NCBI GenBank assembly: GCA_964502885.1
Contig: CAZCXU010000001.1
Coordinates: 93,352-157,351, forward strand
Origin: an uncultured Gammaproteobacteria bacterium
Lineage (GTDB): Bacteria > Patescibacteriota > Microgenomatia > CAZETR01 > Amesbacteraceae
DNA: 64,000 nucleotides
Reading direction: 5' to 3'
The notes under the pieces are model-generated. The model saw only the letters and a program-made list of their open reading frames with translations. It was not told the DNA's origin and did no database searches. Positions 29,485 through 34,055 of the stretch are shown piece by piece; the first letter of the stretch is position 1, and every line of letters begins with the position of its first letter. A program made the position numbers and the translations under genes.

Positions 29485-29880
29485 TTAGGAGCAGCCGATG
29501 CCTCTGGCTATACAGATATCAAATATTCCCAAATTGATACCGAGGAAAGTGCCAATAAGGTTGACTATTACGAATGCTGACAAGGTGATTATTAATCCTG
29601 CAAGAGAAAAGATAATTGTATTTCTTGCTTGTTCGGTTTGGGCTTTGTCTGCTCCTGCAGCTAGATACTTGTATCCACCAATAACCAGAAATCCTAAAGA
29701 AATGAAAACAAAAAGGCTGATGATTGCGGTAATCGCAGCGGCTATTACTCTATTTAGGTTCTGGAGCATTGCGGGCGGAGTAGGGTTTGCAATTGTTGTT
29801 TGAGCTTGAGCGACAGTAGGCCATGCTAATACGAATACAGATGCGGCCAACGTGATCAGTGAGCGAATTGTTGTGTACAT
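29485..29880 (-). CDS. T4SS pilin-like paralog 11 (VirB2/TrbC-type), divergent, with Sec signal peptide
   Basis: The signal peptide ends AWPTVAQAQ. The core is ISLFVFISLGFLVIGGYKYLAAGADKAQTEQARNTIIFSLAGLIITLSAFVIVNLI, i.e. two TM helices around a charged loop. The C-terminus ends CIARGIGCS. Confidence 0.7.
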   Translation of the reverse strand: MYTTIRSLITLAASVFVLAWPTVAQAQTTIANPTPPAMLQNLNRVIAAAITAIISLFVFISLGFLVIGGYKYLAAGADKAQTEQARNTIIFSLAGLIITLSAFVIVNLIGTFLGINLGIFDICIARGIGCS

Positions 29881-29896
29881 CTGTTTTTAATATAGG

Positions 29897-29936
29897 GCAA
29901 AAAAACAACCCCGGCAAGGGCCCGGGGTTGTTTTGG
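29897..29936 (-). terminator. Strong rho-independent terminator after pilin paralog 10
   Basis: An 11-bp perfect stem pairs AACAACCCCGG (29904..29914) with CCGGGGTTGTT (29922..29932) around a 7-nt loop. On the minus strand the hairpin is followed by a T7 run (complement of A 29899..29905). Confidence 0.75.
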
Positions 29937-29960
29937 CCATTTCTGGCCGGTTCCAAAAAC

Positions 29961-30323
29961 TTATGAACCAATCGTTGCGAGATTGAATTCGATAAGGTTG
30001 ACGTTGAAGAGAACACGCAGAATGTACAGTAAGGCGTAAGCAGAGAAGACGATTGCCAAACCGATTAAGGCGGCAGTGATCTTCTTGCGAGCTTTTTCGG
30101 TACCTTCTTTGTCTCCACCAGCGAGAATCCATTGTAAACCACCCCAAAGTAGGATGATAAAGGAAGCTACGCCAGCGATACCCAACATAAGATTCAAGAT
30201 GGTTCTCAAGAAATCTGATGGGGTATAGTTCTTCAAAGTGTCGAAACGTGTATCGACGTTAGCCACGCTACCGACATCCGAGTCTGGAATAGGAAGAGCA
30301 AGTTGTGCAAGTAGTCTCATCAT
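29961..30323 (-). CDS. T4SS pilin-like paralog 10 (candidate major pilin)
   Basis: Starts at ATG 30323, 5 nt after the SD-like GGTGAG. The core is IAGVASFIILLWGGLQWILAGGDKEGTEKARKKITAALIGLAIVFSAYALLYILRVLFNVNLIEF. It is flanked by its own candidate promoter and by the terminator at 29897..29936. Confidence 0.8.
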   Translation of the reverse strand: MMRLLAQLALPIPDSDVGSVANVDTRFDTLKNYTPSDFLRTILNLMLGIAGVASFIILLWGGLQWILAGGDKEGTEKARKKITAALIGLAIVFSAYALLYILRVLFNVNLIEFNLATIGS

Positions 30324-30348
30324 CAAATCTCACCGCCTTTCAGTGGAA

Positions 30349-30357
30349 AGTATAACA
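30349..30357 (-). promoter_or_regulatory. Extended -10 element (TGTTATACT on the minus strand) upstream of pilin paralog 10
   Basis: The plus-strand AGTATAACA at 30349..30357 is the reverse complement of TGTTATACT. It lies in the only sizeable gap (53 nt) within the pilin array. Confidence 0.35.
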
Positions 30358-30379
30358 TAAAATCAGTGCCGGAGGCTAA

Positions 30380-30754
30380 TTAGAGGGGTGTGATAGTGTA
30401 CTCAATGAGATTGACGTTGAAGAGGGTACGGATGATATACAGAATCGCATAGGATGAAAATACGATAGCCAATCCTATGAGAGCATAGCTGATTTTGCGG
30501 CGAGCTTTCTCGACTGCGTCTTTGTCGGATCCAGCGGTAATCCATTGAAACCCACCTATTAGGAGGAATAAGAATGCGGCAACACCTGACAGGCCCAGGA
30601 GGGCAAGAATCGACGTGCGGATATAGCTGGCGGGCTGAATATTGTAGGTGTTAGCAAAAGGAGAGTTGGGGTCGCGTAGATCTATTAATTGCTGGGCATC
30701 AATAGAAGGAGGAAAGAGAAGCAAGCTTGCCAGGAGAGCGAGAATCAGTTTCAT
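30380..30754 (-). CDS. T4SS pilin-like paralog 9, with Sec signal peptide
   Basis: The signal peptide is MKLILALLASLLLFPPSIDAQ. The core is LSGVAAFLFLLIGGFQWITAGSDKDAVEKARRKISYALIGLAIVFSSYAILYIIRTLFNVNLIEY. Confidence 0.8.
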   Translation of the reverse strand: MKLILALLASLLLFPPSIDAQQLIDLRDPNSPFANTYNIQPASYIRTSILALLGLSGVAAFLFLLIGGFQWITAGSDKDAVEKARRKISYALIGLAIVFSSYAILYIIRTLFNVNLIEYTITPL

Positions 30755-32131: not shown

Positions 32132-32134
32132 ATT

Positions 32135-32518
32135 TTAAGGTGAAGCAACAATTAACTGCAATCCGAGACGAAAGATGTCCAATCCCAGGAATCGGCCAAT
32201 GATTCCAATTAGTCCGTATGATCCAACAACTATGAACATACCCAATATGGAAGTGGAAAGACGTTTTTTGCTTACCTCCACGGTATTTTTATCGCCACCG
32301 GCACCAATCCACTGCATTCCGGAAAGGACTATTTGATAGATGAACCAAAGTGACGCGACTATAGTGAGTAAACCGAGGATAGAAGAAACAAATTTTTCCA
32401 ACATATCTCCGGGCCCTCCACCTGTGCCAGTCATAAAAAGTCCTGAATGTCCAAATGTACCCAGAGGTCCGACACCGTCAATGTTTCCCAAGTTGACTTG
32501 AGCTAAAAGGTTTCTCAT
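32135..32518 (-). CDS. T4SS pilin-like paralog 5
   Basis: I chose the start at ATG 32518 (MRNLLAQVNLGN...), which gives a 4-nt ATGA overlap with the upstream stop. The core is VASLWFIYQIVLSGMQWIGAGGDKNTVEVSKKRLSTSILGMFIVVGSYGLIGIIGRFL. Confidence 0.75.
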   Translation of the reverse strand: MRNLLAQVNLGNIDGVGPLGTFGHSGLFMTGTGGGPGDMLEKFVSSILGLLTIVASLWFIYQIVLSGMQWIGAGGDKNTVEVSKKRLSTSILGMFIVVGSYGLIGIIGRFLGLDIFRLGLQLIVASP

Positions 32519-32874
32519 GGGGTGAATATCCGTGGTGAAATAAGCGTGTTCCATCCATTAATACCATACAGGAAGAGGCCGATGACGCTGGCGATGACTA
32601 ATGATCCGGTGACTATGGCTAGTCCCAGAAAGGATTGCCAAATGCGCTCGTGGGCTTTTTGGACCATTTTGGGGTCGCCATTTGCGCTTAAGTATCCATA
32701 CCCTGCCAAAATTAGATTGATCAATGTGTATATACCAGCCAGGATTATGGAGAGTCGGATGAGGCTGCTAAGAATTAAGATAAGACCTTCGCCCTGAGTG
32801 CCAGCTGCGAGTCTGGGATTGTTGTATCCGGATGTCCCAAATGGATTGTCGATAGTGCCGAATGCTCCTAACAT
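32515..32874 (-). CDS. T4SS pilin-like paralog 4 (divergent)
   Basis: The core is LAGIYTLINLILAGYGYLSANGDPKMVQKAHERIWQSFLGLAIVTGSLVIASVIGLFL. Confidence 0.7.
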   Translation of the reverse strand: MLGAFGTIDNPFGTSGYNNPRLAAGTQGEGLILILSSLIRLSIILAGIYTLINLILAGYGYLSANGDPKMVQKAHERIWQSFLGLAIVTGSLVIASVIGLFLYGINGWNTLISPRIFTP

Positions 32875-32880
32875 AGTTTT

Positions 32881-33231
32881 TTAGACGAATGGCGGGTCAA
32901 TTAAGTTTACACCTGTAATGGTAGATATAATCTGAAGTATAAAATAAGCACTAATGACTAGCAATAAGCCCAGAACTCCATAAGTGACGGAATTTTTTCC
33001 TTGCTGAACACGTTGTGGAGGGTTGATTTGTCCGCCAAAGATAATTAGTAAGTAACCTCCGTGGATGATGAGATAAATGAAATAAAGACTGGCGATTGCC
33101 ATGGCATTGAGGAGTAAGAGAGAGACAATATCGCCCAATTGACCACGGAAAGGGGAGGTGGCCCCAACGTTGGGATGGTTGACGAAAAACTTGTCTTGCA
33201 AGTTTACTGGCGGGTTAAGAAGCTGAAACAT
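32881..33231 (-). CDS. T4SS pilin-like paralog 3 (divergent)
   Basis: The core is IASLYFIYLIIHGGYLLIIFGGQINPPQRVQQGKNSVTYGVLGLLLVISAYFILQIISTITGVNLI. Confidence 0.7.
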   Translation of the reverse strand: MFQLLNPPVNLQDKFFVNHPNVGATSPFRGQLGDIVSLLLLNAMAIASLYFIYLIIHGGYLLIIFGGQINPPQRVQQGKNSVTYGVLGLLLVISAYFILQIISTITGVNLIDPPFV

Positions 33232-33234
33232 TTT

Positions 33235-33540
33235 TTAGATTAAGTTGGTGCGGGTAATAGTTTGAATTATTTGCAAAATAAAGAAGGCACTAACTACAGT
33301 AAGGAGGCCAAGAAGCGCGTTGGTGATCTGTCTTTTTATCTGCATGAGTTTGGCTTCGTCGCCCAGGCTTCCCATATATGCGAATCCCGCTGTAATCAGA
33401 TGGTAAAGAAAATAGAGTCCGGCTCCGGCCATGGCAAAGAGAATAGTGCGAGAGGCGATTGTTGAGGGTAGTGTGGCACTGGTCGAGAATCGGCCGGAGG
33501 TGTGGATGAAATCGGGAATCTGAGCTAAATGTGAGTTCAT
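33235..33540 (-). CDS. T4SS pilin-like paralog 2 (divergent)
   Basis: The N-terminus is MNSHLAQ. The core is GAGLYFLYHLITAGFAYMGSLGDEAKLMQIKRQITNALLGLLTVVSAFFILQIIQTITRTNLI. Its start overlaps the upstream stop by 1 nt (TAATG). Confidence 0.7.
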   Translation of the reverse strand: MNSHLAQIPDFIHTSGRFSTSATLPSTIASRTILFAMAGAGLYFLYHLITAGFAYMGSLGDEAKLMQIKRQITNALLGLLTVVSAFFILQIIQTITRTNLI

Positions 33541-34055
33541 TAGAGTCGGAAACCAAATAAGGAGAGACCTAAGACGTTAAATCCTAAGAAGTTGAGAACG
33601 ACGATGGCGGAAGTGATAAGAATTAAACCTAGTACTGCCGAGGTGAGTGTGTCTTTGGCGGAATTAATTTTTTTAGGGTCGCCTTCAGCGGTGGCAATAG
33701 TGAAACCCGCATATACGATCAGAAGAAGAGTAGCCAGGCCGGCCAAACCAACTGCCCAAGTAGCAATAATCCAGACTGTATTTTGAGTATCGGAGGTGGG
33801 TATACAACCTAAGGCTGTCCTAATAGCACCAGTGCCTGCACAAAAAGGATTTTGAGCATTACATTCTGCTACAGTGTCGCAACAAAGATGTTCCATAGGG
33901 TTTGCACATTGAGGGCGGGCGACACAGGGACTGTAAGTACCCCATATTGTTCGAGAACGGATTTCACACCAGCTGTAAGTTGGATCTGGGAGGGATAATA
34001 CTGACGTGACAAATAAAAGTGTTGTGATAAGTATTCTAAGTGGTGCAGATTTCAC
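33540..34055 (-). CDS. T4SS pilin-like paralog 1 with signal peptide and an N-terminal 8-Cys module (first gene of the array)
   Basis: The start codon is GTG at 34055. The signal-like N-terminus is MKSAPLRILITTLLFVTSVLS, and the 8 Cys lie between about residues 29 and 84. The core is LAGLATLLLIVYAGFTIATAEGDPKKINSAKDTLTSAVLGLILITSAIVVLNFLGF. An extended -10-like TGCTAAACT (reverse complement of 34062..34070) ends 6 nt before the start codon. Confidence 0.7.
   Translation of the reverse strand: MKSAPLRILITTLLFVTSVLSLPDPTYSWCEIRSRTIWGTYSPCVARPQCANPMEHLCCDTVAECNAQNPFCAGTGAIRTALGCIPTSDTQNTVWIIATWAVGLAGLATLLLIVYAGFTIATAEGDPKKINSAKDTLTSAVLGLILITSAIVVLNFLGFNVLGLSLFGFRL

Follow-up and report, generated by a model that had tools for sequence, protein, structure and literature searches.

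The closest described counterparts of the genes considered here are tandem arrays of VirB2-like genes in Patescibacteria, of which 441 with 2-11 members have been published, mostly from Microgenomatia and Saccharimonadia (Quinonero-Coronel et al. 2025, PMC12102498). Southlakia epibionticum carries a six-pilin array, and the pilin subunits in its type IV secretion system (T4SS) cluster are reported to be essential (PMC10633639, PMC12857230). In the available parts of these studies, no pilus is reported for any Patescibacterial T4SS, and monoderm T4SSs are normally without pili (PMC12102498, PMC12857230, PMC10633639). The array analyzed here, eleven consecutive minus-strand ORFs at 29485-34055 (p1 to p11 in transcription order, Table 1) in a stretch of DNA of 64,000 nucleotides (the window), is of this already published kind, and belongs to the chromosomal T4SS locus of a Patescibacteria/CPR genome resembling Candidatus Amesbacteria. 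The original prediction had considered an eleven-gene array exceptional. This is wrong for the phylum, both by the published range of 2-11 genes (PMC12102498) and by a count of paralogs across relatives with a locus-specific HMM, which found 5-13 pilin genes in 74/79 related loci.

Table 1. Genes of the pilin array and the surrounding T4SS locus, with window coordinates and scores against Pfam T4SS_pilin (PF18895)
Feature	Coordinates	Strand	PF18895 (bits)	Remarks
p1	33540-34055	-	37.4	171 aa, GTG start
p2	33235-33540	-	18.2 (below cut-off)	101 aa, 1-nt overlap with p1
p3	32881-33231	-	27.7	116 aa
p4	32515-32874	-	20.2	119 aa
p5	32135-32518	-	18.7	127 aa from ATG 32518; 139 aa from upstream ATG (ORF list start 32554)
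p6	31799-32131	-	33.4	110 aa
p7	31461-31802	-	33.1	113 aa
p8	30783-31454	-	34.5	223 aa
p9	30380-30754	-	33.9	124 aa
p10	29961-30326	-	42.1	121 aa; 120 aa from ATG 30323
p11	29485-29880	-	26.2	131 aa, last pilin
Secreted Cys-rich protein	25798-29460	-		1220 aa; signal-peptide-like N-terminus; 24 nt downstream of p11, same operon
Polytopic membrane protein, divergent VirB6-like component	24021-25751	-		576 aa; VirB6-like fold
PrgI/VirB3-like protein, C-terminal Ig-like domain	19840-20931	-		PF12666 PrgI 33.6 bits, cut-off 27
TrsD-like protein (VirB4 N-terminal-domain homolog)	19161-19907	-		NF045975 E 2.7e-9; NF041427 TrsD E 8.9e-6; both below cut-offs
VirB4-family ATPase, monoderm (CD1110) type	17318-19183	-		NF045971 377.5 bits, cut-off 325
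SpoIID-domain protein, N-terminal coiled coil	34081-35868	+		PF08486 SpoIID 55.1 bits; divergently transcribed

The eleven genes are confirmed as true paralogous T4SS pilin genes of the Pfam family PF18895. This family is the top match for all eleven proteins (E-values 9e-11 to 2.7e-3), seven of which exceed its gathering cut-off, and no other ORF in the window matches it; likewise, searching the 64 kb with an array-derived HMM yields no further ORF at E<1. The coordinates, the shared alignment core and the PF18895 matches agree on eleven consecutive paralogs, as had been predicted. The predicted designation as VirB2-like pilins stands with respect to the Pfam pilin family and the T4SS locus, but classical VirB2/TrbC are at best marginal direct homologs. 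Five paralogs match PF04956 (TrbC/VirB2) in the same register and below threshold, the best score being 25.3 bits for p10 versus a cut-off of 27.9, and hhalign of the pilins against genuine VirB2 gives a non-significant probability of 1.7%. A PDB profile search found nothing, and fold searches were unspecific, returning only generic hairpins; membrane subunits of many kinds, ATP synthase subunit c among them, have a similar fold. Some homologs are publicly annotated as “TRAP permease small subunit” or “mechanosensitive channel”.

A multiple alignment of the eleven proteins yields one shared core, in which two transmembrane (TM) segments flank a basic loop in the order helix 1, (G/A)GD turn, loop, helix 2. 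The shared helix-1 motif of the original prediction holds only roughly: all eleven proteins keep two Gly and 10/11 the Asp, with p1 and p3 as deviating members. The conserved non-hydrophobic positions are the GGD turn, the K-A-R loop and a Pro in the N-tail. The AF2 model of p10, a protein identical to an NCBI entry, is a helical hairpin (helices 36-69 and 73-107) with core pLDDT above 90. Variability is greatest in the N-tails and in the appended domains, both predicted to lie on the outer side, and each pilin class has its own N-tail motif, including FG.I.NPF in p4, G(I/L)GPLG in p5 and NPA(I/L)N in p6. In addition to its two TM segments, p1 has an N-terminal hydrophobic segment (signal peptide), and its N-terminal ectodomain contains 8 Cys; the orthologs of p1 carry long Cys-rich N-extensions (median 146 aa; at least 4 Cys in 71%). 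The C-terminal extension of p8 spans ~100 aa and contains 10 Cys; the exact protein is also present on a Logan contig, and 9/79 related loci have pilins extended at the C-terminus by 50 aa or more. Signal peptides are further found in p9, as an N-terminal hydrophobic segment, and in p11, which has the C-terminal tail CIARGIGC, and mini-leaders are found in p2 (MNSHLAQ), p5 (MRNLLAQ), p7 (MINQHLLAQ) and p10 (MMRLLAQ). A recognizable signal peptide is missing in six to eight of the 11 pilins.

The genes had been described as tightly packed, which applies to the first seven junctions from p1 to p8 (-1, 3, 6, -4, 3, -4 and 6 nt) but not to the last three gaps (28, 56 and 80 nt). An independent gene call places the start of p5 at the 127-aa form, with a 4-nt overlap. 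Shine-Dalgarno sequences are mostly absent at the array genes, and the seven tight junctions amount to translational coupling, implying co-expression of the pilin genes. A promoter/terminator scan gave results at chance level, and thus no promoters are detectable for single pilin genes. The identity matrix agrees with the graded paralog family that had been proposed. It does not agree with p7-p10 being near-identical recent duplicates: they form one expanded subfamily with 62-68% identity in the 80-aa core (63-68% for p7 to p8-p10), 50-58% over full length and only 61-70% at the DNA level, where no long identical tracts, near-identical cassettes, flanking inverted repeats or invertible promoter were seen. 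Identity outside p7-p10 is 20-48%, with most pairs at 20-35%, p2 and p3 sharing 48% of their cores and p6 being ~45% identical to the p7-p10 core.

The 79 related loci were chosen by similarity to p7-p10, and their array-size statistics are therefore biased towards this class; the modal array size among them is six, and two relatives (L002 and L004) carry arrays of 12 and 13 genes by the locus-specific HMM. Reciprocal-best-hit (RBH) orthologs of p4, the most widely conserved class, are present in 73/79 loci, those of p5 in 72/79 and of p3 in 66/79, whereas p2 has orthologs in 14 loci and p11 in 23, in each of which it closes the array at the 3' end. Complete collinearity of the RBH order holds for 66/79 loci, and 1000/1025 ordered pairs are in agreement. 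Among the six-gene arrays (n=26), scoring position against position gives a strongly diagonal matrix (89-126 bits versus 27-58); the best match falls on the corresponding position in 77-100% of comparisons, and p3, p4, p5 and p7 map to positions 1, 2, 3 and 5, respectively. The order p3-p4-p5 is conserved, and copy number varies only in the p1 and p7-p10 classes. The paralogs are ancient positional orthologs across Amesbacteria, Shapirobacteria and Woesebacteria. In other genomes 2-6 pilin units (in some cases 5-6) are fused in one polypeptide within a pilin array, and one archaeal protein contains 16 units.

As predicted, the surroundings are those of a T4SS, with a VirB4 above its NCBIfam cut-off, a TrsD-like gene, a PrgI/VirB3 gene and a VirB6-like fold (Table 1). 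The VirB4-family ATPase also matches PF19044 (TraG P-loop, E 2.5e-29), and the PrgI/VirB3-like and TrsD-like genes are syntenic in 24 and 15 loci, respectively. Downstream of the array, in the same operon and separated from it by one gene, is the VirB6-like gene. The intervening gene encodes the 1220-aa protein, with 40 Cys clustered at residues 700-1000, no Pfam or NCBIfam match and syntenic homologs in 31/79 loci; it may be a surface, tip or adhesin component. The SpoIID-domain gene occupies the same divergent position in 43/79 loci, and its product is a candidate cell-wall lytic enzyme for the apparatus. This gene order recurs in dozens of genomes, and the locus lies close to dnaA and dnaN, in line with published Patescibacterial loci.

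It appears probable that the products of the eleven genes are the VirB2-like “pilin” set of a monoderm-type T4SS, the hairpins of which would co-assemble into one heteromeric filament or conduit. Each pilin is predicted to be a ~70-residue helical hairpin that sits in the cytoplasmic membrane with its two termini facing outward and the K/R-rich loop on the inner side. A single operon, most genes of which would be translationally coupled, would provide the pilins, the large secreted Cys-rich protein and the VirB6-like membrane protein; the VirB4/TrsD/PrgI machinery would then pull the hairpins out of the membrane, and co-assembly on the VirB6-like platform would yield an envelope-spanning or extracellular structure that may serve the epibiotic lifestyle. 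In this assembly p3, p4 and p5 would be ancient single-copy, specialized (minor or positional) subunits and the p7-p10 class the multi-copy, probably major, subunit, with Cys-rich domains presumably displayed on the outer face by p1 (N-terminal) and p8 (C-terminal). That the paralogs are not interchangeable is suggested by the 5-13 genes in most related loci, the collinear RBH order, the diagonal matrix and the class-specific N-tail motifs, and co-assembly is supported by the fused 2-6-unit polypeptides inside pilin arrays of other genomes. Arguing against this explanation, the missing signal peptides are unlike VirB2/TraA, and covalent 5-6-unit fusions are, without processing, difficult to fit into a helical pilus of the classical one-subunit type. 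The lack of any reported Patescibacterial pilus, the non-significant comparison with VirB2, the empty PDB search and the unspecific fold results also count against it.

The same fusions, as proteins of 10-12 TM helices, would naturally make a bundle or ring, and it is conceivable, if rather unlikely, that the hairpins stay embedded in the membrane as a hetero-oligomeric ring or channel, or a lipid-handling part, of the translocon and do not assemble into an extracellular pilus at any stage; one such arrangement would be a layer of five or six hairpins around the VirB6-like stalk, with a role in uptake or export through the envelope of a monoderm cell. Consistent with this idea are the pilus-free monoderm T4SSs (PMC12102498, PMC12857230), the modal array size of six, the six pilins reported for S. 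epibionticum (PMC12857230) and the subunit c-like hairpin fold. However, signal peptides and the large Cys-rich ectodomains of p1 and p8 suggest surface exposure, the 1220-aa secreted protein is co-transcribed, and TrbC/VirB2-type pilins are the nearest among annotated families. Co-assembly is common to this alternative and the heteromeric filament or conduit; only the final structure differs.

A co-assembled heteromeric structure is also favored over a reservoir of interchangeable antigenic, phase or host-range variants used one or few at a time, a reading that seems decidedly doubtful. The published survey draws the analogy with Bartonella and Anaplasma and proposes adaptation to different host strains (PMC12102498), and both the differing copy numbers of the p1 and p7-p10 classes between genomes and the variability of the outward-facing parts would be in keeping with it. 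Of the three functional options of the original prediction, heteropolymer and major-plus-minor pilins fit the positional orthologs, translational coupling and fused poly-pilins elsewhere, whereas phase or antigenic variation is disfavored because near-identical cassettes and flanking inverted repeats are absent from p7-p10 and the classes are ancient, with positions conserved across three lineages. The low identity outside p7-p10, the p7-p10 DNA without long identical tracts or an invertible promoter, the seven coupled junctions, the lack of detectable per-gene promoters and the reported essentiality in S. epibionticum (PMC12857230, PMC10633639) further argue against such a reservoir. Least probable by far, and effectively refuted, is that the proteins are generic TM low complexity, or holins or small transporter subunits without a role in secretion, as weak sub-threshold Pfam matches of some paralogs (WLS-like, TAS2R, DUF4013) and the public names of some homologs might indicate, since PF18895 is the top match throughout, a PHROG/holin search gave no match, the GGD turn, K-A-R loop and N-tail Pro are conserved, the array HMM picks up no other TM ORF in the window, orthologs occur in 79 other loci, and VirB4, PrgI and the VirB6-like gene are conserved as syntenic neighbors.

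Among known systems, type IV pili and type II secretion pseudopili offer a functional analogy only: they combine co-transcribed small pilins, one abundant and several low-copy priming or tip subunits, but their fold, class III signal peptide leader cleaved by PilD and assembly ATPases are unrelated to those of the array. Mbov_0395/MMCAP2_0565 (NF045849, “pilin-like conjugal transfer protein”, an NCBIfam model of one protein family) is small, has two TM segments and belongs to a monoderm conjugation system of MPF-FATA type, from the same Mycoplasma ICE family as the Mbov_0397 VirB4 modelled by NCBIfam; p10 and p4 match nearly the full model length, yet at 24.3 and 16.5 bits, below the cut-off of 40. 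Tandem virB2-like genes in Bartonella and Anaplasma phagocytophilum likewise belong to T4SSs for host interaction rather than conjugation (cited as an analogy in PMC12102498), but those arrays are read as antigenic variation, whereas the ancient positional classes here lack the DNA similarity needed for recombination. Classical VirB2/TrbC/TraA pilins (PF04956) share the small two-helix hairpin with a basic loop and a T4SS locus with VirB4, VirB3 and VirB6 equivalents. The VirB2 leader is cleaved at A|Q; leaders ending in A|Q are also seen in some array members, and the A5 consensus reads PAxAxAQ. Classical systems differ in usually having one pilin gene, in diderms, as opposed to eleven in a monoderm-type setting, in sequence, with PF04956 scores below the gathering cut-off, a non-significant hhalign match and most paralogs without a signal peptide, and in forming T- and F-pili, whereas a pilus built by the array is putative. 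The Patescibacterial arrays (S. epibionticum ML1 SEML1_0006-0019; the “Sec-secreted array” of Nanosynbacter lyticus TM7x; PMC12102498) are not fundamentally different in the published parts available: PF18895 is common to both, the tandem paralogs are similarly divergent (published mean identity 25%), a chromosomal T4SS cluster with VirB4, TrsD and PrgI lies near dnaA, the window shows neither a relaxase nor a coupling protein, which counts as a likeness, and eleven genes is the top of the published range. The positional-orthology pattern, the VirB6-like neighbor in Microgenomatia and the mini-leader do not appear in the available portions of those accounts. To this known kind of array the present locus and its relatives add detail in the form of 5-13-gene arrays, ancient positional classes, a p7-p10 class at 61-70% DNA identity and fused pilin units.

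The eleven consecutive minus-strand open reading frames of the array, numbered p1 to p11 in transcription order, share a single core in a MAFFT alignment: a variable N-tail leads into a first hydrophobic helix, and a K/R/E-rich loop connects this helix to a second one. The first helix ends in the pattern (G/A)G-x-x-(W/Y)-x-x-AGGD; only two glycines are invariant across the eleven, and an aspartate is retained in 10/11. Hydropathy places two transmembrane segments in every paralog, and the AF2 model of p10 consists of helices at residues 36-69 and 73-107 with pLDDT above 90. Together with matches to the Pfam T4SS_pilin family (PF18895), the alignment bears out the original prediction of eleven tandem genes with one architecture. 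Mutual core identity is 62-68% among p7-p10, 48% between p2 and p3, about 45% between p6 and p7-p10, and 20-37% for the remaining pairs. The same prediction had taken p7-p10 for near-identical recent duplicates, but they are an old subfamily, and their DNA is only 61-70% identical over 228 nt. With the starts taken as ATG 32518 for p5, in agreement with an independent gene call, and ATG 30323 for p10, in agreement with an identical NCBI protein (P0001), the junctions from p1 to p11 are spaced by -1, 3, 6, -4, 3, -4, 6, 28, 56 and 80 nt. The close packing that had been described therefore holds at the first seven junctions, which are tightly coupled (-4 to 6 nt), but not at the last three. A promoter and terminator scan returned counts equal to those of shuffled controls, with terminator-like sites not above chance.

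PF18895 is the best family for all eleven paralogs, and the array proteins belong to it. Seven of them (p1, p3, p6, p7, p8, p9 and p10) score above its gathering cut-off of 26.6 bits, with 27.7-42.1 bits; p11 (26.2 bits) and p2, p4 and p5 (18-20 bits) score below it and are tied to the other paralogs through the array alignment and their orthologs. An HMM built from the array matched nothing beyond the array in the 64-kb window, and the PHROG and holin families gave no match to its proteins. These three results together confirm that the similarity is not generic transmembrane composition, and they lead us to reject a holin or transporter identity; neither of the outcomes that had been set against the pilin assignment beforehand, generic transmembrane low complexity or a holin or transporter family, was found.

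The relation to classical VirB2 is more distant, and of the claim that these are VirB2-like pilins the assignment to T4SS_pilin stands, whereas membership of the TrbC/VirB2 family (PF04956) at its curated threshold does not. No paralog reaches the gathering cut-off of 27.9 bits; p10 comes closest (25.3 bits, E 1.7e-5), followed by p8 (21.5), p7 (16.3), p9 (15.3) and p11 (10.7 bits), while p1-p6 have no match. These five align to the same part of the model. An hhalign comparison of the pilin alignment with one of 32 VirB2 sequences, that of A. tumefaciens among them, gave a probability of 1.7% (E 0.03) over helix 1 only, a weak negative given the narrow, Rhizobiales-type VirB2 alignment. A profile search of the PDB with the array returned chance-level matches only, and fold searches were uninformative, the fold being too simple. 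That the proteins would work like a VirB2 pilin is offered as the best functional analogy. Weak matches were also seen to NCBIfam NF045849, the Mbov_0395 family of pilin-like conjugal transfer proteins from Mycoplasma ICEs (p10, E 1.9e-5; p4, E 4.9e-3). They hint that small pilin-like hairpins also occur in monoderm MPF-FATA systems, which a recent survey treats as lacking VirB2 (PMC12102498).

Species-representative genomes, scanned with the alignment of p7-p10 alone, yielded 79 related loci, a set that is biased towards genomes having the p7-p10 class. Closest to the window are loci of Candidatus Amesbacteria MAGs, on which the taxonomic placement of the window is based; Shapirobacteria, Woesebacteria and genomes labelled "Microgenomates/Patescibacteria group" come next. 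About half carry the title "uncultured Gammaproteobacteria bacterium", yet their Patescibacterial T4SS synteny is shared with the named MAGs of Amesbacteria, Shapirobacteria and Woesebacteria, and so these titles appear to reflect placeholder or wrong taxonomy. By the array HMM, 33 of the 79 loci have six pilin genes, six have seven, 16 have eight, 11 have nine and four have ten, with one locus each at 11, 12 and 13 genes. Pilin arrays are the rule among these Microgenomatia loci, and an eleven-member array, which had been put forward as exceptional, is not exceptional in a phylum with 441 published arrays of 2-11 genes.

Gene order within these arrays is conserved. Best-match assignment to the window paralogs gives the order p1-p2-p3-p4-p5-p6-[p7..p10]-p11 in Amesbacteria, and the p3-p4-p5 triplet is recovered almost everywhere. 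In 66/79 loci all reciprocal best hits are collinear, and 1000 of 1025 ordered pairs agree. A comparison of 26 six-gene arrays that made no use of the window gave mean scores of 89-126 bits between genes at the same position and 27-58 bits between genes at different positions; in 77-100% of comparisons, a gene and its best match shared their position. The window's p3, p4 and p5 correspond to positions 1-3 of such arrays, and p7-p10 all correspond to position 5; copy number varies only in the p1 and p7-p10 classes. Each class has an N-tail signature of its own (FG.I.NPF in p4, G(I/L)GPLG in p5, NPA(I/L)N in p6), and members of the p1 class have long Cys-rich N-terminal ectodomains. Judged from these sequence comparisons, the paralogs are ancient positional orthologs and not variants.

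The N-termini show a further regularity. A hydrophobic segment is present at the N-terminus of p1, p9 and p11, is borderline in p8 and is missing from the other seven, for which stop codons just upstream of the start exclude a hidden leader. Many of the pilins begin instead with a mini-leader, M-x(1-6)-[LI][LI]-A-Q, without a hydrophobic h-region, which is also found in the related loci; same-class orthologs from other genomes carry a complete signal peptide that ends in ...LAQ. The short leader is the only possibility in 88/582 pilin open reading frames, compared with 1/839 background frames, and the motif occurs at a density of 3.1 per 1000 aa in pilin N-tails versus 0.36 in the background.

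The array is linked to a Patescibacteria-type VirB4, TrsD and PrgI set near dnaA and dnaN (see table). It forms the 5' part of a minus-strand operon and is followed, after a 24-nt gap, by a secreted Cys-rich protein of 1220 aa and then by a 576-aa protein whose polytopic fold matches solved VirB6, consistent with the VirB6/TrbL family. In the 79 loci, tblastn revealed a recurring layout with divergent 619-aa, 241-aa and SpoIID-domain proteins opposite to the array and, downstream of it, a large Cys-rich protein, the 576-aa protein, PrgI, TrsD and VirB4. The N- and C-terminal parts of the 1220-aa protein are conserved in 31/79 loci, and neither p1 nor p8 shows significant BLAST similarity to it in its Cys-rich extension. 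Its gene is flanked by the pilin genes on one side and the VirB6-like gene on the other, which recalls the placement of virB5 next to virB6 in classical virB operons. On the opposite strand, the gene of a 926-aa protein lies between two operons, that of the pilins and the VirB6-like protein and that of PrgI, TrsD and VirB4; weak homologs of it occur in only 2/79 loci, and it looks like a lineage-specific insertion. Pfam, NCBIfam and PHROGs returned nothing for the 1220-aa, 926-aa and 288-aa neighbours. The start codons of the SpoIID gene and the array are only about 25-37 nt apart, and a SpoIID gene occupies the same position in 43/79 loci. Because VirB1 is reported as mostly absent in Patescibacterial T4SSs (PMC12102498), the SpoIID-domain protein is a possible cell-wall lytic partner.

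Features of the pilin array and the surrounding T4SS locus, in window positions
Feature	Position	Strand	Remarks
dnaA	12917-14275		
dnaN	14529-15647		
VirB4 ATPase	17318-19183	-	NF045971, 377.5 bits vs cut-off 325; monoderm CD1110 family
TrsD-like protein	19161-19907	-	
PrgI/VirB3-like protein	19840-20931	-	
926-aa protein	21182-23962	+	Soluble, highly charged
576-aa protein	24021-25751	-	
1220-aa protein	25798-29460	-	40 Cys, concentrated in residues 700-1000
Pilin array, p1-p11	29485-34055	-	Eleven genes, 101-223 aa
Terminator-like hairpin with T-run	29907-29922	-	Inside the 80-nt p10-p11 gap
Mini-leader of p10	30303-30323	-	
Mini-leader of p7	31776-31802	-	
Mini-leader of p5	32498-32518	-	
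Mini-leader of p2	33520-33540	-	
SpoIID-domain protein	34081-35868	+	N-terminal coiled coil; divergent from the array

Among 1.84 billion representative proteins, a profile search found 83,673 relatives at E<=1e-3, and at the top of this list stand single chains with 2-16 pilin units; all of the top three have six units, and several of the chains have exactly 5 or 6. One six-unit protein (P0361; positions 1777-3435 of locus L083) lies within a pilin array on a metagenomic scaffold, with three pilin genes upstream and one downstream, and the same array includes a two-unit pilin gene (599-1246). Another chain (P0407, 1775 aa; positions 10001-15328 of locus L084) has 16 matched stretches in the library search and 13 units by the array HMM. 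Its contig is probably archaeal, since it also encodes ribosomal protein L39e, and no T4SS genes are nearby on it. Fusions of this kind are absent from all 79 Microgenomatia loci. The fused chains provide Rosetta-stone-type support for co-assembly, and, with positional orthology and the VirB6-like neighbour, they narrow the hypotheses towards a heteromeric assembly. The heteropolymer that had been among the original suggestions fits both the positional orthologs and the fusions, while co-assembly itself is what we infer.

Our tentative reading, to which we attach low confidence, is that the array may be the parts list of a monoderm T4SS fibre or conduit of fixed, heteromeric architecture. At its core would be about six pilin classes of ancient origin, each in a defined place. 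The p3-p4-p5 order, which is conserved throughout Microgenomatia, suggests this, and so do the recurrence of six as the modal gene number of arrays, as the number of pilins reported in Saccharimonadia and as the number of units in fused poly-pilins; the p7-p10 class would be amplified as the bulk subunit, assembly would take place on a highly divergent VirB6, and a subset of subunits would use a previously undescribed M-x(1-6)-LLAQ mini-leader in place of a signal peptide. The mechanism held most likely, of which this is a bolder version, is that the hairpins would enter the membrane with both ends outside and the basic loop on the cytoplasmic side, VirB4 would extract them again, and the VirB6-like platform would be where they co-assemble into one heteromeric structure. 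In it, the conserved single-copy classes would serve as specialised subunits and the amplified p7-p10 class as the bulk subunit, while the 1220-aa protein and the Cys-rich domains appended to p1 and p8 would be exposed. The product might also be a membrane- or wall-embedded ring or conduit as opposed to an extracellular pilus, an option kept alive by the fusions and the six-fold recurrence. Cassettes for antigenic or phase variation, which the original prediction had also considered, are unlikely: the classes are of ancient origin; the longest family of direct repeats (228 nt, 61-70% identical) falls short of what recombination needs; inverted repeats are limited to two short imperfect ones, with no invertible elements; and gene-specific promoters are not above chance level.

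The Patescibacteria (CPR), which live attached to host cells, form a large part of bacterial diversity. T4SS and pilin genes are essential in their one genetically tractable member (PMC10633639; PMC12857230). Wang et al. (PMC10633639) describe the pilin subunits of S. epibionticum as essential, within a cluster without recognisable coupling and relaxase proteins; a 2025 review (PMC12857230) describes six structurally conserved, sequence-divergent VirB2-like pilins in this organism; and the requirement for epibiotic growth is known only from Tn-seq in S. epibionticum (PMC10633639; PMC12857230). The 441 VirB2 arrays come from a search of 3,035 Patescibacteria genomes by Quinonero-Coronel et al. 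2025 (PMC12102498), who used PF18895, PF04956 and CONJScan profiles. The arrays comprise 2-11 genes, are spread over 383 assemblies and are most frequent in Microgenomatia and Saccharimonadia; identity within arrays averages 25% and reaches at most 54%. The authors further place the T4SS near dnaA/dnaN and find TrsD abundant and detectable VirB6 scarce in Microgenomatia. To this picture the present comparison adds positional orthology, a VirB6-like protein beside the array in Microgenomatia, fused pilin units in some lineages and the mini-leader. No new kind of system is shown; with eleven tandem, divergent genes at 20-68% core identity, where at least two such VirB2-like genes define a published array, the window array is a real, well-defined feature of an already known kind and belongs to the Patescibacterial T4SS pilin arrays. 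It is a clean, large example that matches the survey's description in every respect, its eleven genes being the largest number in the published size range (PMC12102498).
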